Positions 7,000 through 60,849 of a DNA stretch of 64,000 nucleotides are shown piece by piece. The DNA is taken from positions 1 to 64,000 of IMG/VR virus record IMGVR_UViG_3300020171_000004, one strand, 5' to 3'. Made by a program: the position numbers and the translations under genes. Numbering within the stretch: the stretch's first letter is position 1; each line of letters opens with the position of its first letter. The notes below the pieces were generated by a model. It searched no databases. It saw nothing but the letters and a program-made list of their open reading frames with translations, and was not told where the DNA came from. Source of the DNA: a virus.

Positions 7000-7473
7000 T
7001 TATTGCATAATCCCAACTGGAGCATCTTCAGGATAAACAATTTCTGGCTTGACCACTTCTGGCTTAACAATAACAGGATCAACGACCTCAACCTTTACGG
7101 CATCGCTAACCGCTTTTGTCACCTCGATAGCAGCAACGGCAGCTATTCCACCCATAGCAACATTGCCAGCAATACCAATCGCCTTGCCGATAATATCATT
7201 TCGTGACGTATCGTATTGCAGACTCGGTGCTTGAACAACAGCTGTTTCGGCCATGGTTGTAATGGTTATGTTATCACCTCGCATTTCCTGCACTCCAGAA
7301 ATAGTAACGGGCTGGTAGATTCGTTGTTTATTCAGATCCCTAAAAACATCCTGCCTGACATTGTTCATATTGGCTTCTTCTTGTGTCACAGCACATCCGG
7401 ATATCATCGAGCCTAGAGCAAGAATCGCGCAAATCCACAAAGCGATTGAAACATAATTTCCCGTTGTCTTCAT
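7000..7473 (-). CDS. Lipoprotein, 157 aa
   Basis: The signal peptide has the lipobox LGSMISGC, the same ISGCA context as 5149..5580. The C-terminus has PEVVKPEIV repeats. Confidence 0.6.
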   Translation of the reverse strand: MKTTGNYVSIALWICAILALGSMISGCAVTQEEANMNNVRQDVFRDLNKQRIYQPVTISGVQEMRGDNITITTMAETAVVQAPSLQYDTSRNDIIGKAIGIAGNVAMGGIAAVAAIEVTKAVSDAVKVEVVDPVIVKPEVVKPEIVYPEDAPVGIMQ

Positions 7474-7619
7474 TCTTTATCCCCTTCTTTTAAAAGTTCT
7501 ACCGCCTCTGCCGCGTCTTCAGCATACATTATTCAACATGATGTGCAAATAAAACCACCATCGTGGTTTCTTCCACATTGCTCTCCGCACTGTGTGCATT
7601 TGAATTCTATAATTTCCAC
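7470..7619 (-). pseudogene. Zn-ribbon paralogue (copy 2) with an in-frame TGA at codon 29; either read through or a split/pseudogene
   Basis: GTG 7619 lies 7 nt after AGGAG. Translation is VEIIEFKCTQCGEQCGRNHDGGFICTSC*IMYAEDAAEAVELLKEGDKE. It has 49 codons, like copy 1, and ends in an ATGA overlap with the lipoprotein start. The TGA at 7535..7533 aligns with Gly (GGA) of copy 1. Confidence 0.5.
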
Positions 7620-7672
7620 AGTATTACTCCTGTCAGGATTAACAAAGCAATAACTTCCACCCACGTCAGCAT
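7607..7672 (-). CDS. Tiny hydrophobic peptide, 21 aa (speculative)
   Basis: Hand-translated as MLTWVEVIALLILTGVILWKL. It has a TAATG overlap with the preceding tiny ORF. Confidence 0.2.
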   Translation of the reverse strand: MLTWVEVIALLILTGVILWKL

Positions 7673-7743
7673 TACACTATTATCCAAACTAGCAATGCTA
7701 AAACAACTAAGTAAGTTATCCAAAATTTCCCGGCAAACGTCAT
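7672..7743 (-). CDS. Tiny hydrophobic peptide, 23 aa (speculative)
   Basis: Hand-translated as MTFAGKFWITYLVVLALLVWIIV. It has an ATGA overlap with the stop of the 649-aa gene. Confidence 0.25.
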   Translation of the reverse strand: MTFAGKFWITYLVVLALLVWIIV

Positions 7744-9689
7744 TGGATTACCGCCGATCCTGGTCCAGACAGGATTGCTGATCCAGCGCCGTTAATCAGT
7801 GCTCTAATAGCCAGTGGTGCTGGAGTATATACTCCAGCAATATATCCCACATCTGGTGCTGAACCATTCCAATGTATGCAACCAGTTAGGCTTGACCCGC
7901 CATTATCGTCTGGAAATGAGCAATGTACGCCATCTATATATAAACCAGCATCAATAGATGGAGACCCAACAGCAAGCGCAAAATCTCCAGTTGCCCCTGT
8001 TGAGGCTGCACCCCAACCAAGTACACGGACACCACGACAATCTGTTGCCCGGCCACAATAAGGGGCCGATAGCGCAGGGGTAAATGTTATTGTCCTTGTG
8101 GTATCGTCTCCGATAGCTGTTATCTGCCTGCGCACACCATCATCCCCAACCTCTATATATTGTCCAACAATAGGACTTGGCCATGTGTATGTCGCCTCTG
8201 TTGCTAGCAAAACGGTATCAGATGCAATCTCCCCTTGAGATATAGACGCCCACAAAAATGGTTCATCAACGTCTGTAAACAACGGGTCATTTGATATTTC
8301 ATTAACTGAACTCCCGCCCAAAATACCCCCACCAGATGAGGAACAATCTAAATTTCCGCTTGCTATGGTATGGTAGTCTCTACTTAACCATTCAGCTATT
8401 GTAAATTTTGCAGAAATAGACGCACAACCTGTTGTGCTAATACTTTTGAGAGTGTCACCTGGATATAAATTAACATGGTCAAAATGCGTATATACGCTTT
8501 GTCCAGGCGGAGAATCTATCTGTGCCGCCCCCGTCCCACCAAAAGCACCTGCTGGTGAGATTTTTCCCAATATAGAGTTCCGAACAGTCAGGATACAACC
8601 TTTCTCGTCATCACGACCACCCCTTGTGTTTTTAATACCGTTCTGCCCATTCGCCCACATTGTGGTATTATCAAGAACCGCAGTAGTTGAATCAGAGTAT
8701 CCACCAGAACATTTCAGTCCTGTTTCAGAACTGCGATATGATAGCACATTTTTAACCGAAAATGTCGATACCCTTCCAACAATTTCCGGCAGTGAACCAC
8801 CTGGACCAAAATTCGAAACCCCCCAAATTTTAACCCCAGTTGCCCCTGAATTTTTTGTGACAATATTTACCAGTGTGGCGTTTTCAGCTTTGGTATCAAC
8901 TCCATCTTCTGAGATTTTGTCAGTTACGATATTACTTATAGTAATATTCCTGACCCATTCATCAGTGTTTATACCGTCTCCGTCTCCGTTATCAGCACCT
9001 TTACCATCATTTACGTTGGTTATCGTGAGATTATCGAGTAGGATATTGTCACTGTAATACCCACCATTGCCGACAAAAGCCACGGCACGAACCTGATCAT
9101 TCACACTTGTAGGCACTCCCACTAGATCGTAAAACGTGCTATTTTTTACGACAACTCCATTTACTCCCCTAAAAACCATACCGTTTGAACAGTTATGTAC
9201 TGTAACATTATCAAACGATAGATTATTGCTAGTTGTGATTGTGCCATCAAAGGCCACCATCCCAATGGAATAGTTTTTAACTTCGAGCGGTCCTACAACG
9301 TGGATGTTATTAAGGGGTGGGTACACATAAAATAGAGAACTTGCGTATGTTGCACCATCCCAACCGTCAAAAATAACCTCCTCATCTGCATACGGTTTGA
9401 TTGTAATTGGATTTTCTGTGGTCCCTCCGGTAAGGCTCGTTGTTTTCGTCCCGAACTGTCTCCCAATATATGTTCCAGCTCGGAAATATATAGTATCTCC
9501 TGGCCCCGGTGCGTTCCAGTTTTTATCCCATATCATCACCTTCGCATCGCAAAATGGCTGAGTGATTGACCCTGTACCAGTTGTGTTAGAGCATGTTCCA
9601 CCTATTGAGTTTTTGTCAAAAAACCAATCCTGGCAAAAACCTACTGACGGAAACAACAATAAAGCTACTATCAGGCATATTTTTATCAT
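7740..9689 (-). CDS. Signal-peptide-bearing right-handed parallel beta-helix protein (polysaccharide depolymerase-like), 649 aa
   Basis: The N-terminus is MIKICLIVALLLFPSVGFC. Repeated beta-helix rungs are visible (VTVHNCSNGMVFRG, VVKNSTFYDL, NITISNIVTD), and the C-terminus has the GSPSIDAG motif. The coding sequence is G+C-rich. Confidence 0.7.
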   Translation of the reverse strand: MIKICLIVALLLFPSVGFCQDWFFDKNSIGGTCSNTTGTGSITQPFCDAKVMIWDKNWNAPGPGDTIYFRAGTYIGRQFGTKTTSLTGGTTENPITIKPYADEEVIFDGWDGATYASSLFYVYPPLNNIHVVGPLEVKNYSIGMVAFDGTITTSNNLSFDNVTVHNCSNGMVFRGVNGVVVKNSTFYDLVGVPTSVNDQVRAVAFVGNGGYYSDNILLDNLTITNVNDGKGADNGDGDGINTDEWVRNITISNIVTDKISEDGVDTKAENATLVNIVTKNSGATGVKIWGVSNFGPGGSLPEIVGRVSTFSVKNVLSYRSSETGLKCSGGYSDSTTAVLDNTTMWANGQNGIKNTRGGRDDEKGCILTVRNSILGKISPAGAFGGTGAAQIDSPPGQSVYTHFDHVNLYPGDTLKSISTTGCASISAKFTIAEWLSRDYHTIASGNLDCSSSGGGILGGSSVNEISNDPLFTDVDEPFLWASISQGEIASDTVLLATEATYTWPSPIVGQYIEVGDDGVRRQITAIGDDTTRTITFTPALSAPYCGRATDCRGVRVLGWGAASTGATGDFALAVGSPSIDAGLYIDGVHCSFPDDNGGSSLTGCIHWNGSAPDVGYIAGVYTPAPLAIRALINGAGSAILSGPGSAVIQ

Positions 9690-43473: not shown

Positions 43474-45996
43474 ATGAAAATTCCAAAAGATCCTACTAGC
43501 GAACAAGATCAAAAGAATAATTCTCTTGATATTCTTGCAGTAGAATGTCCACCAACGAATAATATCAATACAGCTATTATTGCTATGGTAGGTGATGCAC
43601 CGAATGATATTGAAGTGCTTAAAGGTGAACCATTTCTTGGGCCACATGGAGCACAATTCAATCGCATTTGTGCGGCGGTCAGGTTAGCTAGGTATCAAAT
43701 ATATCTAACTACTGCTTGCAAGGCAAAACTTCCTAAGCATAATGTCAGCAAGCTATGGACTGATAAAGGCTGGAGGCATCCTAAATGGGGAGAACTTCAA
43801 CAAGCTTTAATCAATGAACTTGCAGAATTTCCAGGCAAAGTAATCATGTTGCTTGGAGATACTGCCATGAGGTTGCTGATTGATGAGCCAAGATTTGATT
43901 CTATTCAAAAATTTCGTGGTTCATTTTATCACGCCGAGGATTTTCCTCACCTTAAAGAAAAACTTGCTGGCAAGATCATAGGTTTTTCTTTCCATCCATC
44001 ATTTACGACCTTCACTGGCAAGCCTGTACACTTTTATACAATGATTGCAGACTTTACAAAAGCTCTGAAACTCATTGATAGCCCAGAACTGCTAACTGAT
44101 AATACTGAAATCATTACCTCACCTGGATTTGAAAAAGTTATGCAGTTTTATGCTCTTGTTCAAAATAAGGAATTTGTTGGCTTTGATATTGAAGCTACTC
44201 CAAAATTTATCACATGCTTTTCATTTTCTGTTTATGATGAAGGTAAAATCAAGGCAATGTCTATTCCTTTAATGGATAATCGTGGAAGCTACTGGTCACC
44301 TGAAGAAGAAGTAAAAATCTGGATAGGAATGGCAAAAATATTAGCTGATGAAAATCTTAAGAAGATTTTGACTAATGGTATGTTTGATATTATGTTTACT
44401 TTGAGAACAATGAATATTAAAACAGAAAACTTCTTCTTTGATACAATGCTTGCCCAACATATATGTTATACTGATTTACCTAAGGGTTTAGATTATTTAA
44501 CATCTTGTTATACTTACTTTCCATATTATAAAGATGAGGGAAAACAATCACATCTAAAAGTAATCAAAGACTGGCCACAATATTGGAACTATAATGCAAA
44601 AGATTCTGCATATTTGCTTCCTATTTCTGAGGCTCTTATTAAGGAACTTGAAGAATTCAATGCTTCTGATGCTTTAGAATATACAATGAACTTGCATAAG
44701 CCTCTGATGGAAATGGAGTTTAATGGCTTCCTTACTGATACTGAAGGAATTAAAAAGACTAAAGCAGAGTATGAGGAAAAGATTCTTACACTTCAAGCAC
44801 AGCTTAATGAAATTGCTGGACAGGAATTAAATACCAATTCATCAAAACAAATGATTGCATACTTTTATGGCATTTGTATGATTAAACCATACATAGACAG
44901 AACTTCAGGTAATGCTACTTGCGGATCAGTTGCTTTACATAGAATTGCAAAGAATGGTGGTAAAGGTTCTACTGAAGCAAAGATTATTATTAAGATCAGA
45001 AAGTATGGAAAGCTGGTTTCTACCTATTTTAATATTGATGTAGATGAAGATAAGAGACTTCGATGTAATCATAAGATTTCTGGAACTACTTCAGGCAGGA
45101 TTGCTACAGAAAAGACTTACTTTGGTACAGGGTCAAACTTGCAAAATCAGCCTTATGTTTTTAAATATTTTTTGATTGCTGATCCTGATCACATTATATG
45201 TGAAGTTGACTTAGCAAAGGCTGAAGCTCATGTTGTTGCGTATTTAGCACAAGATGCAAACATGATAGAATCCTTTGTTAGTGGAATTGATGTTCATAGT
45301 TTTAATGCCAGTAAGATTTTTCATGTACCTATTGAAGAAGTCATTGCTGAGCATCATGCAAATAAAGAAGATCAAAAATCAACCATGCGATATATGGGCA
45401 AGAAAGTAGTTCATGCCAGCAACTATAACATGGGTCCACAAACATTCTCAGATCAGCTTGCTGTTGAAGAAATCTTTATGTCTCAAAGTGAATGTAAGAA
45501 ACTTTTGACTAACTATACTGACAGATTTCCTGGACTAAAGCGTTGGCACCGTTCCATTGAAGAAGAAGTTCAAGCAACTAGAACTTTGTATAATCTTTTC
45601 GGTAGGCCAAAGAAGTTTCTTGGTGAAATGAATCCTGCACTGTTTAGAAATGCTTACAGTTATAAGCCTCAATCTACTGTAGCAGAACTACTTAATCGTG
45701 GAACAATTAAGATTGCTAATGATCCTAGACTTGGTAAGGATGGTTTTGATATTCGTTTACTTACTACTGTTCATGATTCTGATGTTTTTATGTTTCACAA
45801 AAGTCAGATACCGAATTTGCTGCAGATTCTTTTAATCATCAAAGAGCATATGACACATACTTTTACTTACAAAGGTAAGAGTTTTACAATAGGTTTGGAC
45901 GCCAAGATTGGCACTCAGTGGGCCGGTAATACAGCAGGAATAGATCATTTCACTCAAGAAGAAATCGATAAAGCAGTTAAAAAAATAGGATTTTAA
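43474..45996 (+). CDS. polA: Family A DNA polymerase with an N-terminal UDG-superfamily domain and a 3'-5' exonuclease
   Basis: UDG-like motifs: VGDAPN, PFLGPHG, YLTTACKAKLP, LLGDTA and FHPS. Exo I motif: VGFDIEAT. Polymerase motif A DLAKAEAHV, motif B RYMGKKVVHASNYNMG, and motif C TVHDS. Confidence 0.9.
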   Translation: MKIPKDPTSEQDQKNNSLDILAVECPPTNNINTAIIAMVGDAPNDIEVLKGEPFLGPHGAQFNRICAAVRLARYQIYLTTACKAKLPKHNVSKLWTDKGWRHPKWGELQQALINELAEFPGKVIMLLGDTAMRLLIDEPRFDSIQKFRGSFYHAEDFPHLKEKLAGKIIGFSFHPSFTTFTGKPVHFYTMIADFTKALKLIDSPELLTDNTEIITSPGFEKVMQFYALVQNKEFVGFDIEATPKFITCFSFSVYDEGKIKAMSIPLMDNRGSYWSPEEEVKIWIGMAKILADENLKKILTNGMFDIMFTLRTMNIKTENFFFDTMLAQHICYTDLPKGLDYLTSCYTYFPYYKDEGKQSHLKVIKDWPQYWNYNAKDSAYLLPISEALIKELEEFNASDALEYTMNLHKPLMEMEFNGFLTDTEGIKKTKAEYEEKILTLQAQLNEIAGQELNTNSSKQMIAYFYGICMIKPYIDRTSGNATCGSVALHRIAKNGGKGSTEAKIIIKIRKYGKLVSTYFNIDVDEDKRLRCNHKISGTTSGRIATEKTYFGTGSNLQNQPYVFKYFLIADPDHIICEVDLAKAEAHVVAYLAQDANMIESFVSGIDVHSFNASKIFHVPIEEVIAEHHANKEDQKSTMRYMGKKVVHASNYNMGPQTFSDQLAVEEIFMSQSECKKLLTNYTDRFPGLKRWHRSIEEEVQATRTLYNLFGRPKKFLGEMNPALFRNAYSYKPQSTVAELLNRGTIKIANDPRLGKDGFDIRLLTTVHDSDVFMFHKSQIPNLLQILLIIKEHMTHTFTYKGKSFTIGLDAKIGTQWAGNTAGIDHFTQEEIDKAVKKIGF

Positions 45997-51134: not shown

Positions 51135-51493
51135 TAGAATTAGGAAATAAATTAAAAGCTGAAGGTAGAGAAGATGATGCATGTCTTGTTTTTGATGCTG
51201 CAATTAAATGTATTTCTAAATCAACAAAATTGAAAAGTGAAATAGGTAATAAATATGGTTTGCTTACAGTTATTTCAAGAGCAGAAAATATAAAAGGACG
51301 TACTAGATGGAATTGTCAATGTGACTGTGGAAAAAGTAAAGACTCTGTTTCAGCAAGGTCATTAAGAACAGGAAATACAATTTCATGTGGTTGTCAACAT
51401 AATGGACGTAAAGCAAGCAGTATGACTTCACCTAAAATAAAAGCTCAAAGAAAGAAATACTATAAAGAATATAAAATGTTGGATATTAAATAA
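51119..51493 (+). CDS. Cys-rich putative DNA-binding protein, 124 aa
   Basis: WNCQCDCGK...ISCGC pattern. Confidence 0.4.
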   Translation: MYERLIELGNKLKAEGREDDACLVFDAAIKCISKSTKLKSEIGNKYGLLTVISRAENIKGRTRWNCQCDCGKSKDSVSARSLRTGNTISCGCQHNGRKASSMTSPKIKAQRKKYYKEYKMLDIK

Positions 51494-51819
51494 TGAGACT
51501 TGTAATCTTAGAAAGCCCATACGCTGGAGATATTCTTAGAAACATTCAATATGCAAGACGTTGTGTTATGGATAGTTTGCTTCGCGGTGAAGCTCCAATA
51601 GCAAGTCATTTGCTTTATACTCAAAATAGTATATTAAATGATGATCTGCCAGCAGAACGTCAGCTTGGTATTAATGCTGGACTTGCATGGAAAACTGTCG
51701 CTGAAGCAACTGTAGTGTATGCTGATTTAGGAATAACTAAAGGTATGCAGTATGGAATTGATCAGGCTAAAGAGCAAGGTCTTGAAATAGAAATTAGATA
51801 CTTATTTAAAAAGGAGTAA
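51493..51819 (+). CDS. Conserved phage protein, possibly nucleoside 2-deoxyribosyltransferase-like, 108 aa
   Basis: LVILESPYAGD...NIQYARRC...RGEAPIASHLLY pattern. The functional assignment is weak. Confidence 0.35.
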   Translation: MRLVILESPYAGDILRNIQYARRCVMDSLLRGEAPIASHLLYTQNSILNDDLPAERQLGINAGLAWKTVAEATVVYADLGITKGMQYGIDQAKEQGLEIEIRYLFKKE

Positions 51820-52345: not shown

Positions 52346-52948
52346 ATGACAATAGATCCAATTGAAAATGAACTTGATTATCCATCAACTAAAGAAGAAA
52401 CTTTATGGTATTTAGGTAAAGTAATAGTTAAAAAACATACTGATCTTGAAGAAGCCAGAGCATGTCTTGAATCAACTATGGGTTCTGGATTTAGCAGCAC
52501 TGCAACATTAAGACAGATTTATGGTTGGGAACATTCAATTACTAGATCACAGATGTTTTCTGTACAATTAATTGATATACCAACTTTTGTATCAGTTCAC
52601 TTAGTTCGTCATGTTACTACAGTTCCTTTTGTAAGATCTAAAAGGATTGATCGGGATGGTGATGGAACTGAGAATCGTTATACTCCTGTTAATCATAGAT
52701 TCCTTGCTAATGCTGAAGCACTAATTAATATGGCCAGACGTAGACTATGCTATCAAGCATCACCAGAAACACGTGAAGTAATGATAAGGATTAAAGAAGC
52801 CATTCGTGAGATTGATCCAGATCTTGCTTATTATATGGTTCCTAATTGTGTATATCGTGGCGGTATATGTCCTGAACCAAAACCATGCGGTAATTATAAG
52901 ATCAGGCGATTTTTAGGTGAGGATGATGAGAAGAATATGAAAAAATAG
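52346..52948 (+). CDS. ThyX-like (flavin-dependent thymidylate synthase fold) protein with a divergent signature
   Basis: WEHSITRSQMFSVQLIDIPTFVSVHLVRHVTTVPFVRSKR and RRRLCYQASPETREV parallel ThyX FEH..FTF...FVARQW.RHR..S...S.RY and R....AQWEI. However, RHRxxS is RHVTTV here. Confidence 0.5.
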   Translation: MTIDPIENELDYPSTKEETLWYLGKVIVKKHTDLEEARACLESTMGSGFSSTATLRQIYGWEHSITRSQMFSVQLIDIPTFVSVHLVRHVTTVPFVRSKRIDRDGDGTENRYTPVNHRFLANAEALINMARRRLCYQASPETREVMIRIKEAIREIDPDLAYYMVPNCVYRGGICPEPKPCGNYKIRRFLGEDDEKNMKK

Positions 52949-53481: not shown

Positions 53482-56400
53482 TTATTGCATTGCTTCTGCA
53501 ACTTCAAGATACCTTTGCAGAATTTGTTCACGCTGTGCCTTGAGTTGTCCAAGTCTAGTCTGAACATTTTCTGTAGATGGTATCTTTTCCAACTTGTTTA
53601 TCACTGCTTTATTCCTATTCAATGCTGATTGAAAATTCTCTTGTAACTTTGATTGCTTAAATCGATCAAGATTTGATTCAATGAAAAGTCGCTTATCATC
53701 AGAATTTTCAAGTTGTTTCTTAAACAATCTTGCATCCTTGCTAGCATCTGCAAATTCCTTTGCTGCAATAGATTGTTTATTTTCTGCTCCACGCCCGAAG
53801 TGCCAATAGTAAAGTTTACCAACTCCAGGAATCGAATCAATGATTCTTGCATGATCAAACTTACTTGTATCACCTGAGATATAATTATTGTAAGTTTCAT
53901 TTACATCTTTGCTTGCAGCATTGATGAATTTCATTGGAGGTAAAATCATCTGACTAGTTGCAGACCCAATACCATCTTTAGTTACTTGCATCCGCATAAA
54001 TCTTGAAGCACCACCTATTGTTAAGAAATTCTCAATTACATGATCAGAGAACTTTGATTCTTTACCCATCAGGAAGTCTTTAAGTTCATCTGCACCAGCA
54101 TTAGCAATCGTCAACAATGCCATCAGTTGAACCATGTTTGTTAGTCCCTGAAGTTTTTGCTGAGGATTATCAGACTTAAGGTTATGCACAACCTCTTTTC
54201 TAAATACATCAAACTGCTTCAAAGTGTATGTTTTGAGCATATAGAATACTCGACCATTTCCAGAATTGAGATAAAACTCAGGCATCTCAGAAAGAGCAAC
54301 TGGCTGAAAGTCAAGCAGTCTAGAATAAAGCAACATCTTAACATTGTCAGATGGATTTCCTGATAAGATTTCCTGGACAACATCAGTTGATTTGCTACCA
54401 AATGTTGGCTTGATCTGCCTATCCAGTGCTTCAGGATTTGCTTTTGCTTGAGCTTTGAATTGATCTAAAGCATTATTAATCAAGACCTCTTTACCTATTG
54501 AATCTATCTTTTCTAGTCCAACAAACTTAAATACCTTACTAACTCCTTTACTTAATGTTGTTCCATCAGCAAACTCCTGGGCGATACGCTCAATTCCTAA
54601 ATCCTCTTTAGTTACATCTGACTTATTTATTATTGCTTTAGCAAGATTCTTACCTGTGCTAAGGAATCCATTTGGTGTCCATACTTTACCAACATACATT
54701 GCCCATGCTAAGTCACCAATCTGCGTGATAGCTGACATAGGACTACCCATAGTATCAATGTAAGAAAAGTTTTTATAAGCATTAATTATGCCATGAGTAC
54801 CTTGTTCATGAAATCTTGCATCAAGAATATCACGAACTGTCTTTTCATCTTTCTTTTGAATCCTTCCTTCAGTCATCATCCTGTCAATATAACTACCAAT
54901 GTTTTCAGTATAATTATTGGTATGTTTATACTCATTCAGCTTTTCATCAATGATGGTAATGTTTTCATTTAATGTACTGATTCGATCTTCAAAATCCATC
55001 AGTCTTTCAGGATTCTCAGCACGAGCCATATCAGCAAGCATATTAAGTTTTATCAACTCAGCTTGTTTTTGTTTCTTTGATGATTTCAATCCACTGATTC
55101 TCTCAGGAACCTTACCAAAGAATTTTCTTGCCTCAATCTTCTTAGTCATACTATAAACATACTGCATCAATGCTGCATCAGCGTCCATATAAAATGGTGC
55201 ATACTCTTTTGGAATAGTCTCAAATACACGAGATTGAATATTACCAGGTCCACCAATTCCTCGATGATTTCCAAGAATTAAATTACTTATGATGTCTGCT
55301 TTGACTTCAGGAAAATCGCGCTCAAATTGTTCTTGAGTTAATCCAAGTTTCTTTGCCTGTGCCCTGATCGCTTCAGTAAACATAGGCCGCTGAGAAATTT
55401 CTTGCGTTGCTTGCAGAAATCCCTCCTGGTCTTTAATAACACGTGGCCAATACTCTTCAATAAAGTTTACATCATAACCAACTGTGATAGCATCTTTACG
55501 AAGTTGATTTAGTTTCTCACGAAGAGCAACAAGCTGATCAGTAAGATTGTACTTTTGTGCTAGCTGCTCGATCTTACCTTTATCAGAGTTAAGCCTTGCC
55601 CAATTCCACTCAACTTGTTCATCTGCTGTCATACCACCTTGACGGATGCCTAAAGCATTCTTAGCTCCATTAGTTGCATCAAGGATTGGTTTAGCTACCT
55701 TCAATACATCAATGATCTTCTGACTTGTTTTAAAATCAAGCCATCTCAGGTGTTCACTTAATTCTGGATCAACATTTTTAAGCCTTGTTGATATTGATCC
55801 TAATGCCTTATCAGCAAGAAGTTTGATTTCATGAACTTTTATTCTTGCTTGTTGTGCATAGTTTTGCAAGAGGTTATTCTTTTCTGATTTCAATGCTTCA
55901 TAATCTACCTGTAGAATCTTTTGCTCAGCAACTTGAAACATTGAGAAACTATCAGTAGTTTTATCAGTGATTGGAAGATAAGATATCATCATAGGCATAG
56001 CAATAGTGATATCAGTACCTTGATAACGCATAATATCAGATATTTTTTCAGCAATTTTATTACCTATAAAAATCATTCTACCATCATCAAAAGTATTTAA
56101 TGCCTCTTCTTTAGATATTTTTACATCTTCATTAATATTACTTTCAATTGATTCAAGTTTCCCATTCCCATAAGATTCAAGCATGGCCGGAATAGTCTTA
56201 TCATATAAGGTCTTGAGTCCTTCGCCACCAACCTTTAAATCAAGGCCAGAATATGTACCTCCGTTATCAGTTATTATCTTCTTTGCAAGTTCTTTTCCTA
56301 TATGACTTTCTAAAGCATCAGCTGATACATCACCAGAGTAAACTGGATTTCCATCTTTTCCATCAACCTCTAAATAGAATTTACCATTATTTAATGCTTT

Positions 56401-59400
56401 TGCATTTATAGAGTCTACCTGATTCTCCAACGAGTACCTATCCGCCTGAGTCTCACCAGCAGTCATTCCAGGCCTAGTAACTAATGATACACCATCAAAT
56501 CCATTCTCTTTAGCATAAGCAAGAACTCGCTTGATACCAAGCTGATAGATATTCTCTTTCAAGTGCTTTGGCATCTTAGCTTGATTGTCTGATAATGGTC
56601 CTTGCATTTCTTCAATGCGAAGAATTCGCTTACCGTCTGCATTGATTTCGTTGAAACGAATACGGACGATTGGATTCTTGATATCTGAGTATTGAGAGTG
56701 GCCATCCCCCCAGTGATTCTCAAATTCCATACTACGAATATCGTTCACCTCATTGTGGAGCTTCAAAAACTTTTTTACTGCTTCCTTAGATGTTCCCCCG
56801 GTCTTTATGGGTTTACTTTCATAGCCGTTTTCAACAACCCAAAAAATGCCATTCTTGTCTAAGACACTATACCCTTCTGGGAGAGACTTAATTGTGCTCT
56901 GGTTTTTCCCATGAGCCGTGATAAACATCTCCCTGTAGCTGCCATCGACTGCGCCTGGTTCGGTATATTGGGAGAAGTGGGTTTTCTTTCCATCAATAAC
57001 CTTCTGCATAGCTGATTTAAGTTCCCAATACCTACCATGTTCTTCTGGAGTCATTCTCATTTCATCAATGATATATTTCCTGTCTAAAGATCTGAATTCT
57101 TCTTGATTTTTTAAAGATAAGTTCTTTTCATCGCTTAATACTACATCATCTAATTCAACCATATTTGCTTTGACAAAGTTACTCAATTCTTCTTTAGTAA
57201 CTATATCAGTAGGTTTCTTAGCAGCTAACCATTCTTGCAGGCCAATAGCTTGAATCTCTTGATAAGGTCTTTGCTCATTAGTATTTTTCAGTTTACTTTT
57301 CAGGTATGGAATAACTTTCTGTGCTTTAAGTTCTGCAGGAAAATCATTAAACACTGCACTCTGAAGTCTTGAATAAAATGCCTGAGCAACTTGCATTAAT
57401 TCTTTTCCTTCAAGTGTTTGATTAGCTGCCAGTCGCTCATAAATCTTTCCAGTTTCTACTTCACGAGCTAAGCCTGAAACTGTTTGTTGACCAAAGCTCA
57501 GCATCTGCTGAAAGAAATCCATGATCCGCTGAATAGTCTTACCGAAAGTAGTATTTCGGTATGATTCTCGATTCACCATGATCTGCGCGAAAGTGTTTGC
57601 TCGATTCTCAACCATTCGCTGCTTAGCATCTTCATGAGTACTGAGTGCAAATTCAAGCTTGTTAGCTTTGCGAAGTTTATTAAATTCTGCATTTAAAGCT
57701 GAATCATCTGCAGGAGTTATCATCCCAAGATTATCAAGCACATGCTTGTTCTCATGCCAAAGAGTCTTGTTATCTGCAAAGTTTTCATCAAGAAGAATGT
57801 CTGAGCCAATAGTAATACCAAGGATTTTTCCTGCTTTTGACATCTGACCAGTTTCAATTGCCAACTTAACAAAGCCTTGACCAGCAGTTTGAATACTTTT
57901 GATTGTTAATCCTTGACCATTTTTAAACTTAACTGAGACATTTCCATCAGCATCTTGAATTATTTCTTGATTTGGAAAAGCTTTTTTAATATCTTCAAGA
58001 TTGACTTTACTTAAGCCTTCTTGATTTTCAGTTGATTGAAATTGTGTCTGTCCTTCAACAGTATGAATATTTTTTGCATCAAAAACATTAATCTCAAAAG
58101 CAGCAGCTAAAGATTTCCCATCAATAACTGCATCATATCCAGCAGCCTTAAATGCTTCAGTAGCTTTAAAACCATCTGCTTTATTTAAGATACTAGACTT
58201 ACCTAAAGCATCTTGAAGTAACTGCTTATATTCAGGAGAATTTTTATATAAAGGATTTTTAAAACTAAACCTTGCTTCAGCTATACGTCCAGGTTTACCT
58301 GTAGTATTTTCTGCTGCATCAGCATATCCTTCAGCATAATCTTTCTTTACAGTAAAATAATGCCCTGCACCAGACCAGCCATGTTCAAATGATTGTATCT
58401 TAGCATTATCAAAAGAATCAAAAGGTTCTGCAGATGTTCCATGAAAACCAGTTAATTCTTGTCCTGCTTCATTTTTAGTATAACCTTCAGCTACTTGAAA
58501 CTGTGGAGCAAATCCACCAGTCTCTGCATTAGCTTCTGGTGATGTATATTGAGGCCTGTTTTGTTTATTCCATTGATCTTGCAACAAACCATTTTCTGTG
58601 TAAAGCGAAGCACTTTCTTGCTGAAGAACTGCTAACTCATTTGGATCAGTAGTCGTAGCTATCTGATCAGCCAAAGCAGCAGATTGTTGTTCATTTACAT
58701 TTAACTGCTCTTCCAACTCTTTGATAGAAGGAACTTGTTCACCTACACCGACTTGTCCGGTGGGCGCAAATTGCTGTTCATTTGTGAACGAACTTGCCAC
58801 ACTTGAAGCAAGTCCTTTTTGGTTTTCTGGAACTGCTGGATCATATGTTTTATAAAGATCATCAATGCGTTTCTGCACCAGACGATTTGTAACATCTTGA
58901 GGATTATCAAACAGCCATCCACGCTGAGGTTCTGGTTTAGCATTTTTGCGCTGATTATATTCAAGTGATATTTGCCTTTGAACTGCTACATCAATCTCAT
59001 CTTTGCTCATACCTGATGCAATAGAATTATGAATCCATCCATCAACTTTAGCTTCATCTACATTGCCTGGAGCAGAAGGATTATATGTATCATATTGCTT
59101 GTTTATTTCATTGCCAATAAACCTATTATTAACAGTTGAGTTATCATCATATGCCCAACCTCTAACAGGAGTATTCTTCTTTTGATTATAATCCAATGCT
59201 GCTTGTCGCTGCTTTGCATAATCATTAAGTCCTTGATCTTCTTGAGGAACTTCTTTCTGCATCCATCCAGCATTTAACTTATTTGATAATTGTACTGGTC
59301 TATTGCCTTCAGTTGGAAATACAAATTCATTACTTCTTCCATGACCTCTTGCAGCATGTCTACCAATCAATTCTGCGGGAATAGTAACTTCAGTAACAGC

Positions 59401-60849
59401 ACCAAACTGTTCAGCTTTAGTTTTATCAGTTGTCCACCACTCACCATTAAGAGTATTCTCATTATTCTCTCCTCTATAGAGAGTAACGTTTTGTCCTGGA
59501 GCTAGATTATCCCAAGTCGCTGCTTTGGTTTCTGTTACTGGTTGCTTAATTCGTTGTTCAGGTTCTTGCTGCTGTATTGGCTGATCTATCTGCTGTTCTA
59601 CTACTTGCTCAGTCTGCGCAGGCTTCAATATTGATACAATTTCTTCAAGTTCATATTTTTTAACGAATTCATCAGGAGACATTTCACCAGAATCAAGCTT
59701 TGCTTTATCAGCTTCAATCTCTATAGATTTTTGATTAAACTCTTCATCAATCTTGGCCCTAGCATCAGAAGATTGTTTAACCAATTGCTTCTCAAGTTCA
59801 AAGTCTCGTTTACCATTAATGATAACTTCAAATTTACTAGCATCAGGTTGAACTGCTTCAGGCTGAGCCTGATCAGTTCCTTCATTAGCAGCGAGTTCTT
59901 GCTCAGTCACTTCAGGCTTACTAGGTGCTCCTGGAAGTAAGTTTGCACCAGCACCCATTGCACCACCAAGAATGATAGCTTTTGCTGAGGCCTCAGGAAC
60001 TCCCTCAAGCAAAGGCTTATCAAGTGCTGCATTAGTGAATATTGTCTCTTGAACAGTTTGTGGTAACTCTTCAAACACACTTTCAGTAATACCACCACCA
60101 ACAATAGATTTTACAACACCTTTAAAGCCTTCCTTCTTAGCTGGATTCAAACCAGAAACTACCATTGTATCAATATCAGTAAAGCCTAGTTTCTTAGATA
60201 ATGATCCACCAACAACACCAAATATTGAAGTACCAAGGCCAGATAATGCCGCTAAACCAGACTGTGTTGCAGTAGTTAATCTGTCTGGAGTTTGTTCTCT
60301 TATCTGCTCTTCTGTTTGCCCAGCACTTATTGCACCCTCACCAATAGCACCAGCAGCAATAACTGATCCTGTCTTTCCTAAAGCAGTCACAGCCTTTGGA
60401 GCAAATTTACTACCAACTGCAAGGGCACCACGACCTAAGACCCCACCAGCAGCAACAGATGGCAAAGTCTCGACAATACCATGCGCAATAGTACTTGGAC
60501 TTGCCAGCATAGCCTTAGCTGTATCAACAAAGCCTTTTGCATCATCAACACTTTTATTAGCTTCTTGCTGTGCAGGAGAGAACTCTGTGGATAACTCTTG
60601 TTGCCATTCTGCTGGTTTTATCCCGATTGTCTCAAGACCACGGCCAATATGACCACCTGTAGGAATATCAGCAAGCCCTATAATACCTTGGCCAGCACCA
60701 ACAACACCTTTAGCAAGAGATATACTAGCATCTTTTAGATTAGATCCTAAAGTACGTTCATATTTAGGTTTTTGAACTTGAGTATCATCAAATAAATTTC
60801 CTACTACTGGCGAAGTAGTGTCTTGTGTATCATCAAAAAGACCGGCCAT
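53482..60849 (-). CDS. Giant multidomain (polyvalent-type) virion/ejection protein, 2455 aa
   Basis: One uninterrupted ORF. Its elements, by residue:
- aa 4-24: LFDDTQ x2 at the N-terminus.
- aa 1 to about 310: Gly/Ala-rich hydrophobic region.
- aa 457-461: LYRGE module.
- aa 528-676: tandem repeats of about 76 aa.
- aa 802-923: FHGTS...GHYFT...FEINVF module.
- aa 1032-1036: HENKH (HExxH).
- A long uncharacterised C-terminal half. Confidence 0.8.
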   Translation of the reverse strand: MAGLFDDTQDTTSPVVGNLFDDTQVQKPKYERTLGSNLKDASISLAKGVVGAGQGIIGLADIPTGGHIGRGLETIGIKPAEWQQELSTEFSPAQQEANKSVDDAKGFVDTAKAMLASPSTIAHGIVETLPSVAAGGVLGRGALAVGSKFAPKAVTALGKTGSVIAAGAIGEGAISAGQTEEQIREQTPDRLTTATQSGLAALSGLGTSIFGVVGGSLSKKLGFTDIDTMVVSGLNPAKKEGFKGVVKSIVGGGITESVFEELPQTVQETIFTNAALDKPLLEGVPEASAKAIILGGAMGAGANLLPGAPSKPEVTEQELAANEGTDQAQPEAVQPDASKFEVIINGKRDFELEKQLVKQSSDARAKIDEEFNQKSIEIEADKAKLDSGEMSPDEFVKKYELEEIVSILKPAQTEQVVEQQIDQPIQQQEPEQRIKQPVTETKAATWDNLAPGQNVTLYRGENNENTLNGEWWTTDKTKAEQFGAVTEVTIPAELIGRHAARGHGRSNEFVFPTEGNRPVQLSNKLNAGWMQKEVPQEDQGLNDYAKQRQAALDYNQKKNTPVRGWAYDDNSTVNNRFIGNEINKQYDTYNPSAPGNVDEAKVDGWIHNSIASGMSKDEIDVAVQRQISLEYNQRKNAKPEPQRGWLFDNPQDVTNRLVQKRIDDLYKTYDPAVPENQKGLASSVASSFTNEQQFAPTGQVGVGEQVPSIKELEEQLNVNEQQSAALADQIATTTDPNELAVLQQESASLYTENGLLQDQWNKQNRPQYTSPEANAETGGFAPQFQVAEGYTKNEAGQELTGFHGTSAEPFDSFDNAKIQSFEHGWSGAGHYFTVKKDYAEGYADAAENTTGKPGRIAEARFSFKNPLYKNSPEYKQLLQDALGKSSILNKADGFKATEAFKAAGYDAVIDGKSLAAAFEINVFDAKNIHTVEGQTQFQSTENQEGLSKVNLEDIKKAFPNQEIIQDADGNVSVKFKNGQGLTIKSIQTAGQGFVKLAIETGQMSKAGKILGITIGSDILLDENFADNKTLWHENKHVLDNLGMITPADDSALNAEFNKLRKANKLEFALSTHEDAKQRMVENRANTFAQIMVNRESYRNTTFGKTIQRIMDFFQQMLSFGQQTVSGLAREVETGKIYERLAANQTLEGKELMQVAQAFYSRLQSAVFNDFPAELKAQKVIPYLKSKLKNTNEQRPYQEIQAIGLQEWLAAKKPTDIVTKEELSNFVKANMVELDDVVLSDEKNLSLKNQEEFRSLDRKYIIDEMRMTPEEHGRYWELKSAMQKVIDGKKTHFSQYTEPGAVDGSYREMFITAHGKNQSTIKSLPEGYSVLDKNGIFWVVENGYESKPIKTGGTSKEAVKKFLKLHNEVNDIRSMEFENHWGDGHSQYSDIKNPIVRIRFNEINADGKRILRIEEMQGPLSDNQAKMPKHLKENIYQLGIKRVLAYAKENGFDGVSLVTRPGMTAGETQADRYSLENQVDSINAKALNNGKFYLEVDGKDGNPVYSGDVSADALESHIGKELAKKIITDNGGTYSGLDLKVGGEGLKTLYDKTIPAMLESYGNGKLESIESNINEDVKISKEEALNTFDDGRMIFIGNKIAEKISDIMRYQGTDITIAMPMMISYLPITDKTTDSFSMFQVAEQKILQVDYEALKSEKNNLLQNYAQQARIKVHEIKLLADKALGSISTRLKNVDPELSEHLRWLDFKTSQKIIDVLKVAKPILDATNGAKNALGIRQGGMTADEQVEWNWARLNSDKGKIEQLAQKYNLTDQLVALREKLNQLRKDAITVGYDVNFIEEYWPRVIKDQEGFLQATQEISQRPMFTEAIRAQAKKLGLTQEQFERDFPEVKADIISNLILGNHRGIGGPGNIQSRVFETIPKEYAPFYMDADAALMQYVYSMTKKIEARKFFGKVPERISGLKSSKKQKQAELIKLNMLADMARAENPERLMDFEDRISTLNENITIIDEKLNEYKHTNNYTENIGSYIDRMMTEGRIQKKDEKTVRDILDARFHEQGTHGIINAYKNFSYIDTMGSPMSAITQIGDLAWAMYVGKVWTPNGFLSTGKNLAKAIINKSDVTKEDLGIERIAQEFADGTTLSKGVSKVFKFVGLEKIDSIGKEVLINNALDQFKAQAKANPEALDRQIKPTFGSKSTDVVQEILSGNPSDNVKMLLYSRLLDFQPVALSEMPEFYLNSGNGRVFYMLKTYTLKQFDVFRKEVVHNLKSDNPQQKLQGLTNMVQLMALLTIANAGADELKDFLMGKESKFSDHVIENFLTIGGASRFMRMQVTKDGIGSATSQMILPPMKFINAASKDVNETYNNYISGDTSKFDHARIIDSIPGVGKLYYWHFGRGAENKQSIAAKEFADASKDARLFKKQLENSDDKRLFIESNLDRFKQSKLQENFQSALNRNKAVINKLEKIPSTENVQTRLGQLKAQREQILQRYLEVAEAMQ

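Follow-up and report, generated by a model that had tools for sequence, protein, structure and literature searches.

The window analysed here, a 64,000-nucleotide stretch of viral DNA taken as a whole, contains a giant minus-strand open reading frame (53482–60849), read from the ORF list and its translation, that encodes a polyvalent-type phage protein of 2455 amino acids. This gene closes a minus-strand block that also encodes a virion structural protein, the 157-residue ORF upstream of it matching a PHROG with that annotation. The other minus-strand late block in the window holds the genes for the large terminase, the portal, the major head protein and an endolysin, and a plus-strand replication block encodes PolA, primases, a match to the RNase H family and a weak ThyX-like (Thy1) match. 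The relatives of the portal come from phages of Pelagibacter, Roseobacter, Alcaligenes, Caulobacter and cyanobacteria, and those of Pelagibacter, Roseobacter and other hosts among them we take to be podoviruses. Among the window ORFs scanned, nothing matched a sheath, tube or tape-measure family, and no tail gene that would define the morphology was identified within the window. The source is an uncultured phage of approximately 66 kb with a podovirus-like portal; the portal relatives and the absent sheath, tube and tape-measure matches among the scanned ORFs are consistent with a podovirus.

A metagenomic contig of 65,823 bp bears the same giant gene, and the Pfam family PF18760 is pre-computed for the gene there. 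Across 50,697 GenBank phage records, megablast of the gene region and tblastn of the C-terminal part of the protein found no match, and tblastn with the ADP-ribosyltransferase (ART) module described below found a single distant one, in MW202675; the GenBank phage collection holds no close cultured relative. A PADLOC run returned only a negligible match to DpdE.

Database searches recovered 168 relatives of the giant protein, mostly 1,400–4,300 residues long, and BLAST segment and coverage maps built on 120 of them show that the protein is modular at the level of its sequence. The N-terminal module (aa 1–320; 59890–60849, minus strand) matches phrog_30335 with E 4.4e-44, is rich in Gly and Ala, has four moderately hydrophobic segments in hydropathy analysis and is common to more than 100 giant proteins in the coverage map of the 120 relatives, some of them annotated as ‘PLxRFG domain-containing’. 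The NCBIfam scan of the giant protein gave nothing, so that we do not claim a ‘PLxRFG’ domain here, and we treat aa 1–320 as a putative virion-incorporation or membrane-interaction module. A variable stretch follows (aa 320–935), with the ART inside it, and the C-terminal scaffold outlined by the BLAST segment map (aa 1640–2455; 53485–55932, minus strand) is shared at 39–79% identity by the approximately 23 closest relatives, with or without an ART. Relatives of the giant protein bear recurrent Pfam accessions of the PF18xxx series, which we take to include the polyvalent-protein domains defined in 2017. We also considered whether aa 452–525 (‘LYRGE...WWTTD...EFVFP’) might be another ART copy, of the R type; this segment drew no match from the family HMM and hhalign gave a probability of 0.8%, and the candidate was rejected as unsupported.

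Within the variable stretch lies an ART-PolyVal domain, bounded by its Pfam envelope at aa 794–934 (58048–58470, minus strand) and recognized by PF18760, by an AlphaFold2 model and by fold matches in the PDB and in BFVD. PF18760 is the sole Pfam domain on the whole giant protein (E 2.6e-10, 41.7 bits); the excised piece gives E 4.1e-12 and 47.5 bits over profile positions 2–136 of 140, and both scores exceed the curated gathering cutoff of 31.2 bits. A word-indexed homologue search with the ART module returned nothing, which made an exhaustive scan necessary, and HMMER run over 1.84 billion representative proteins gathered 225 homologues at E ≤ 1e-3. Many of these domains sit within proteins of 1,000–5,600 residues, often several copies in each and as many as 8 in some. 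The module is 63–65% identical to its nearest relatives and 25–35% identical to most members. In searches of PDB sequences, phmmer with the module produced nothing above noise level, farnesyl diphosphate synthase at E 0.3 being an example. When the three motifs were written as a loose regular expression, the real protein contained one match and 20,000 residue shuffles contained none. With a profile score above the curated cutoff, aa 794–934 belong to the ART-PolyVal family, as the earlier note had proposed; its coordinates for the module, 58045–58467, hold on the minus strand only, the plus-strand frame over the same positions being full of stops.

The predicted active site was examined in an alignment of 66 full-length homologous domains. 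H803 (codon 58441–58443, minus strand) lies where strand 1 ends, in an F-H-G-T motif; the position is His in 66 of 66 domains, followed by a Gly (G804) conserved in 100% and a Thr (T805) conserved in 97%, and it aligns with the YHGT motif of exotoxin A, whose histidine is H440. The first tyrosine, Y831 (58357–58359, minus strand), falls in a G-x-Y-F motif on strand 2, here G-H-Y-F, that aligns with GFY of exotoxin A and GIYF of PARP4, and is Tyr in 62 of 66 domains (94%). The second, Y842 (58324–58326, minus strand), lies in A-E-G-Y-A, aligns with the Tyr of ‘AYGYA’ in exotoxin A and is Tyr in 57 domains and Phe in 6 of the 66 (86% Tyr). E919 (58093–58095, minus strand) opens the strand F-E-I-N-V-F and aligns with the E of ‘EFVVY’ in PARP4. 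We predict H803 to be the NAD+-binding or catalytic histidine and E919 the catalytic acid, and with Y831 and Y842 the canonical H-Y-Y-E set reads as complete.

These assignments agree with the family profile, in which H803, Y831 and E919 occupy the conserved H, Y and E/D columns. A profile of the 36-sequence alignment that served as AlphaFold2 input found weak matches among PDB sequences (E 0.006–0.5), nearly all of them H-Y-E ARTs, and the best of these, marginal themselves at E 0.006–0.03, set YHGT against GYHGT of exotoxin A, GfYF...A.sYA against GFYIAGDPALAYGYA and E-vvvF against EFVVY of PARP4. The three residues that the earlier note had singled out are present where it put them, in the contexts F-H-G-T, G-H-Y-F and F-E-I, as is the peptide it quoted (‘ELTGFHGT’ from residue 798). 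The active site of ART-PolyVal has been described as H-Y-D, with His on strand 1, Tyr on strand 2 and Asp on strand 5 (PMC5512222). The only departure of the present module from that 2017 description is its third catalytic residue, Glu rather than Asp. This is a conservative and common variant: of the 66 domains, 47 have Glu here and 15 have Asp (acidic in 94%), so that a glutamate at 919 is unexceptional.

The alignment-based AlphaFold2 model of the module has a pLDDT of 92.7 and a pTM of 0.88; prediction from the single sequence reached a pLDDT of 35 and was uninformative. H803 is on the model strand 12–17, Y831 on 42–45 and E919 at the start of 131–134, a late strand. Foldseek searches of the PDB with the model returned ART folds almost exclusively, headed by chain B of PDB 9k3a (E 2.5e-6) and followed by AcrIF11 (6kyf), with tankyrases, PARP1/2/4/12/13, cholix toxin, MbcT and ParT among the further matches. 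The Foldseek probability is 0.95–1.0 for tankyrase, PARP1/2/4/12/13 and cholix toxin, with TM-scores of 0.4–0.5, and the TM-scores to solved ARTs are moderate overall (0.4–0.57). Among the predicted viral structures of BFVD there were 75 matches at E ≤ 1e-3; of the top 50 listed, many bear the name ART-PolyVal or PolyVal ADP-ribosyltransferase. Judged from the Foldseek matches and from the order of the secondary-structure elements, the model has the split beta-sheet topology, and the module as predicted has the ART fold. A structure prediction lacking this fold was the outcome that, according to the earlier note, would count against an H-Y-E ART, and it did not occur; the arrangement is instead upheld by the PF18760 match, by conservation across the 66 domains and by the fold matches of the model in both structure collections.

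Pairwise alignment with one relative of the giant protein, P0151, and the BLAST segment maps delimit the ART cassette at aa 779–935 (58045–58515, minus strand), flanked by the short sequences PQFQ and TQFQ. In P0151 the two flanks are joined directly and the counterpart of aa 779–935 is missing, a clean indel. ART-PolyVal domains occur in 8 of the 21 closest relatives, at varying positions. By comparison of these sequences, the ART is an accessory cassette in this lineage. Its base composition gives no sign of foreign origin: the GC content of 0.344 is within one standard deviation of that of the gene (0.374 ± 0.031), and the idea of a compositionally foreign cassette was dropped.

Adjoining the ART on its C-terminal side is a putative zincin-like metallopeptidase domain (aa 936–1140; 57430–58044, minus strand), recognized by its motif only. 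The HExxH motif (H1032, E1033 and H1036) and a downstream glutamate, E1081, are invariant in two alignments, one of 21 relatives and one of 8. The region matched no Pfam or peptidase family and no PDB sequence, and sub-threshold matches to Tox-ART-HYE1 within it were treated as noise. Because the HExxH domain is without a database match, any polyprotein-processing step ascribed to it is speculative.

The closest known counterparts are the members of the ART-PolyVal family itself, which was defined by Iyer et al. in 2017 with a giant virion protein of Roseovarius Plymouth podovirus 1 as its prototype (PMC5512222). ARTs are the commonest protein-modifying domains of phage polyvalent proteins, for which packaging and injection have been predicted on the model of T4 Alt (PMC5512222); a 2022 survey took the same view, predicting injected, host-modifying ARTs in polyvalent proteins (PMC9503650), and ART-PolyVal is now annotated in routine phage genome papers (PMC11654794). 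In the literature we found no experimental or biochemical test of any ART-PolyVal member. The present module shares the motif layout of the family, with YHGT, GxGxYFT..A..YA, NP, GYDGV and E/D-x-V-V-F in the same order, and, like the podovirus prototype, it sits in a giant multidomain phage protein (here 2455 residues) whose gene lies among those for late virion proteins. Unlike many copies, which end in a C-terminal ‘QIKSAxGNxGxFD’ tail, this module has ‘NIHTVEGQTQFQ’ in its place.

The best structural match in the PDB, chain B of 9k3a, is gp27 of cyanopodophage A4, a protein of 1717 residues in the outer layer of a pentameric pre-ejectosome and was described as a capsid-internal ejection protein (A4 structure paper). 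The match to gp27 (E 2.5e-6) has a TM-score of 0.57 normalized to the query, and gp27 is likewise a giant protein, encoded in a podovirus beside other internal proteins. At approximately residues 1423–1600, gp27 reads SLYHGT, GSGTYFS..A and an apparent Asp ahead of the late hydrophobic strand, so that its third residue, unlike E919, appears to be Asp; outside this ART-like region its sequence similarity to our protein is not significant. The link to gp27 consists of the Foldseek match and a weak HMM match of 9.5 bits, and the Pfam scan of gp27 placed an ART domain below threshold. In the A4 paper there is no mention of ADP-ribosylation, and the region is not called an ART. A link of this kind offers an experimentally resolved view of the place of such a domain in a podovirus capsid.

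The catalytic domains of diphtheria toxin, exotoxin A, cholix toxin and the PARPs share the fold of the module (Foldseek probability 0.95–1.0) and have the H, both Y and the E in register with it in profile alignments. Unlike that group, the module is far smaller (approximately 140 residues) and carries a helical insertion that separates strand 4 from the late strands; unlike the PARPs, it is without the regulatory and donor-loop elements; and its sequence similarity to these families is marginal (E 0.006–0.5). The module is of the same superfamily clade as diphtheria toxin and the PARPs but belongs to none of those families. AcrIF11 (6KYF), the second-best structural match in the PDB, is like it a small phage-borne ART of the diphtheria type; its activity is proven, with Csy1/Cas8f as the protein that it inactivates, and its key residues are H-F-H-D. 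In contrast to the cassette within a giant virion protein, AcrIF11 is a free-standing anti-CRISPR protein of phages and plasmids, of approximately 130–150 residues, that is expressed after entry, and it has no detectable sequence similarity to the module. From its example, an ART reduced to this size can act against a host defence with high specificity. T4 Alt provides the concept of an ART that is packaged in the capsid, injected with the DNA and active on host proteins, but it belongs to the R-S-E clade (Alt/VIP2), has another architecture and comes from a myovirus, so that the parallel is one of function only.

The earlier note had judged an H-Y-E ART in a podovirus-like ejection protein to be unusual. 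The prototype of the family is itself a giant virion protein of a podovirus (PMC5512222), at least one ART-PolyVal domain is present in 45 of 120 relatives of the giant protein, and the closest solved structure is the podovirus ejection protein gp27, all of which make the setting ordinary.

The reading that we favour, and consider likely, is that the module is a genuine ART-PolyVal effector cassette, a packaged and ejected NAD+-dependent modifier of the host. The rival that departs furthest from it holds that a very long protein has thrown up an array of short H-Y-E motifs by chance, with no ART domain at all. In its favour, three short motifs were what the earlier reader relied on, the word-indexed search was empty and the single-sequence prediction poor; against these stand the Pfam score above the curated cutoff, the 225 homologues, a confident model with ART-fold matches and the silence of all 20,000 shuffles, which together exclude a chance match and leave this explanation a negligible probability. 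That the domain is a relic, an ART fold kept as a structural block of the capsid-internal core after catalysis was lost, is highly improbable too. In its favour, the pre-ejectosome layer to which the ART-like region of A4 gp27 belongs is ordered and touches DNA, and some copies in the many proteins with up to 8 of them are probably degenerate. In the present module, however, all catalytic positions are intact, and across very divergent homologues they are 94–100% conserved, which argues for selection on the chemistry, and the scaffold does without the domain in P0151 and in 12 other close relatives, which argues against an architectural role.

The main alternative concerns the target and the chemistry of an active enzyme. 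It is possible, although we do not favour it, that the module is an active ART-fold enzyme of a kind other than an Alt-like modifier of the transcription machinery: a specific anti-defence enzyme resembling AcrIF11, a nucleic-acid ART or an NAD+ degrader. AcrIF11, proven against Csy1/Cas8f, ranks second among the PDB matches, and MbcT, the toxin of the M. tuberculosis MbcT–MbcA system, and ParT are among the fold matches; MbcT degrades NAD+. The patchy distribution of the cassette among close relatives, at variable positions, is also typical of arms-race cargo rather than of a core takeover function. Set against this, the complete H-Y-Y-E set is closer to the protein-modifying diphtheria toxin and PARP group than to the H-F-H-D of AcrIF11, the sequence points to no target and the structural matches to all of these are similarly moderate.

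For an ART-PolyVal effector cassette of the kind that we favour, a sequence of events can be proposed. The giant protein would be incorporated into the capsid, probably through its N-terminal module and C-terminal scaffold, and would be expelled into the host together with the DNA. Packaging in the virion is suggested by analogy, and a role as an ejection protein by the position of the gene, the podovirus-type relatives of the portal and the structural match to A4 gp27. Once inside the cell, the ART would bind NAD+ and place ADP-ribose on a macromolecule of the host, with a protein as the likeliest substrate, and this modification could aid early takeover or disarm a defence. The adjoining HExxH domain may cut the polyprotein and so free the ART. 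What the analysis itself shows is membership of the family, the fold, the conserved catalytic residues and the behaviour as a cassette; packaging, ejection, enzymatic activity, the nature of the target and proteolytic release we infer. A bolder version, which we regard as rather unlikely, would make the Glu-type cassette a swappable anti-defence warhead, pre-loaded in the capsid core, that is freed by the HExxH domain and ADP-ribosylates a specific immunity protein or nucleic acid of the host within the first seconds of infection. Were this version true, the patchwork of ARTs on conserved scaffolds would track the defence repertoires of the hosts, and the ordered ART-like domain in the A4 pre-ejectosome would be an unrecognized enzyme.

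The finding is real but ordinary: an ART-PolyVal domain in the setting in which domains of this kind were first described. The family is very abundant in giant proteins of phages, a standard Pfam scan finds the domain, and PF18760 is already recorded for this very protein in publicly available pre-computed annotation. With its complete H-Y-Y-E site, its compact build of approximately 157 residues and its clean boundaries, the module lends itself well to a first biochemical test. If the assignment of gp27 holds, the A4 structure would provide direct structural evidence of ART-PolyVal-like domains inside podovirus capsids.

In the giant protein, the ART-PolyVal module is directly followed by an HExxH domain (aa 936–1140; window 57430–58044, minus strand) carrying the motif H1032-E-x-x-H1036 together with E1081. 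These motif residues are invariant across 21 relatives, and the domain, which shows 63–89% identity among close relatives, is present with or without the ART. It has no match in Pfam or among PDB sequences, and we consider it a putative zincin-like peptidase. Sub-threshold matches to Tox-ART-HYE1 in four of eight domain members (best E = 0.0017) are probably noise.

Starting from the N terminus, the giant protein opens with a Gly/Ala-rich module (aa 1–320; window 59890–60849, minus strand) with four moderately hydrophobic segments (aa 41–60, 120–139, 197–218 and 287–305). The module is without a Pfam family and is common to more than 100 giant proteins from phage contigs of approximately 60 kb and some bacterial genomes, some of them annotated as ‘PLxRFG domain-containing protein’; it probably directs virion incorporation or membrane interaction. 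Further along, a small module (aa 452–525; window 59275–59496, minus strand), reading ‘VTLYRGE...GEWWTTDKTKAEQFG...NEFVFP’, bears a superficial resemblance to the ART motifs, with Arg at the place of His. It has no family match, its similarity to the ART profile is not significant (hhalign 0.8%), and it shares 66% identity with a portion of P0271, a stand-alone protein of 146 aa. Next, a unit of approximately 50 aa occurs twice in tandem (aa 540–672; window 58834–59232, minus strand), with the pattern ‘QRQ..L.YNQ.KN....RGW..D....V.NR........Y.TY(N/D)P’. Among the relatives examined, these repeats are shared only with P0151, a relative without the ART cassette.

Elsewhere in the window, a family A DNA polymerase of 840 aa (43474–45996, plus strand) has an N-terminal uracil-DNA-glycosylase-superfamily domain (aa 33–179), followed by 3′–5′ exonuclease and polymerase domains. 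Two plus-strand ORFs, one similar to DUF7768/nucleoside 2-deoxyribosyltransferase (51493–51819) and one weakly matching ThyX (Thy1; 52346–52948), adjoin the replication genes and hint at nucleotide-pool or base-modification functions.

The top structural match of the ART module in the PDB is gp27 of Anabaena phage A-4L (9k3a chain B), an outer-layer protein of the pre-ejectosome encoded on the minus strand of KF356198 (20116–25269). Within gp27, aa ~1423–1600 contain the motifs SLYHGT, GSGTYFS..A and DGDTTLVINPD and appear ART-PolyVal-like; Pfam calls no ART-PolyVal domain in gp27, and the structure paper makes no mention of ADP-ribosylation. In MW202675.1, an unrelated phage genome of 61 kb, a 739-aa protein annotated as ‘peptidase M15’ (7270–9489, plus strand), encoded directly downstream of the portal gene, ends in an ART-PolyVal-like module with 34% identity to that of the giant protein. 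This module is a further head-associated placement of the ART-PolyVal domain.
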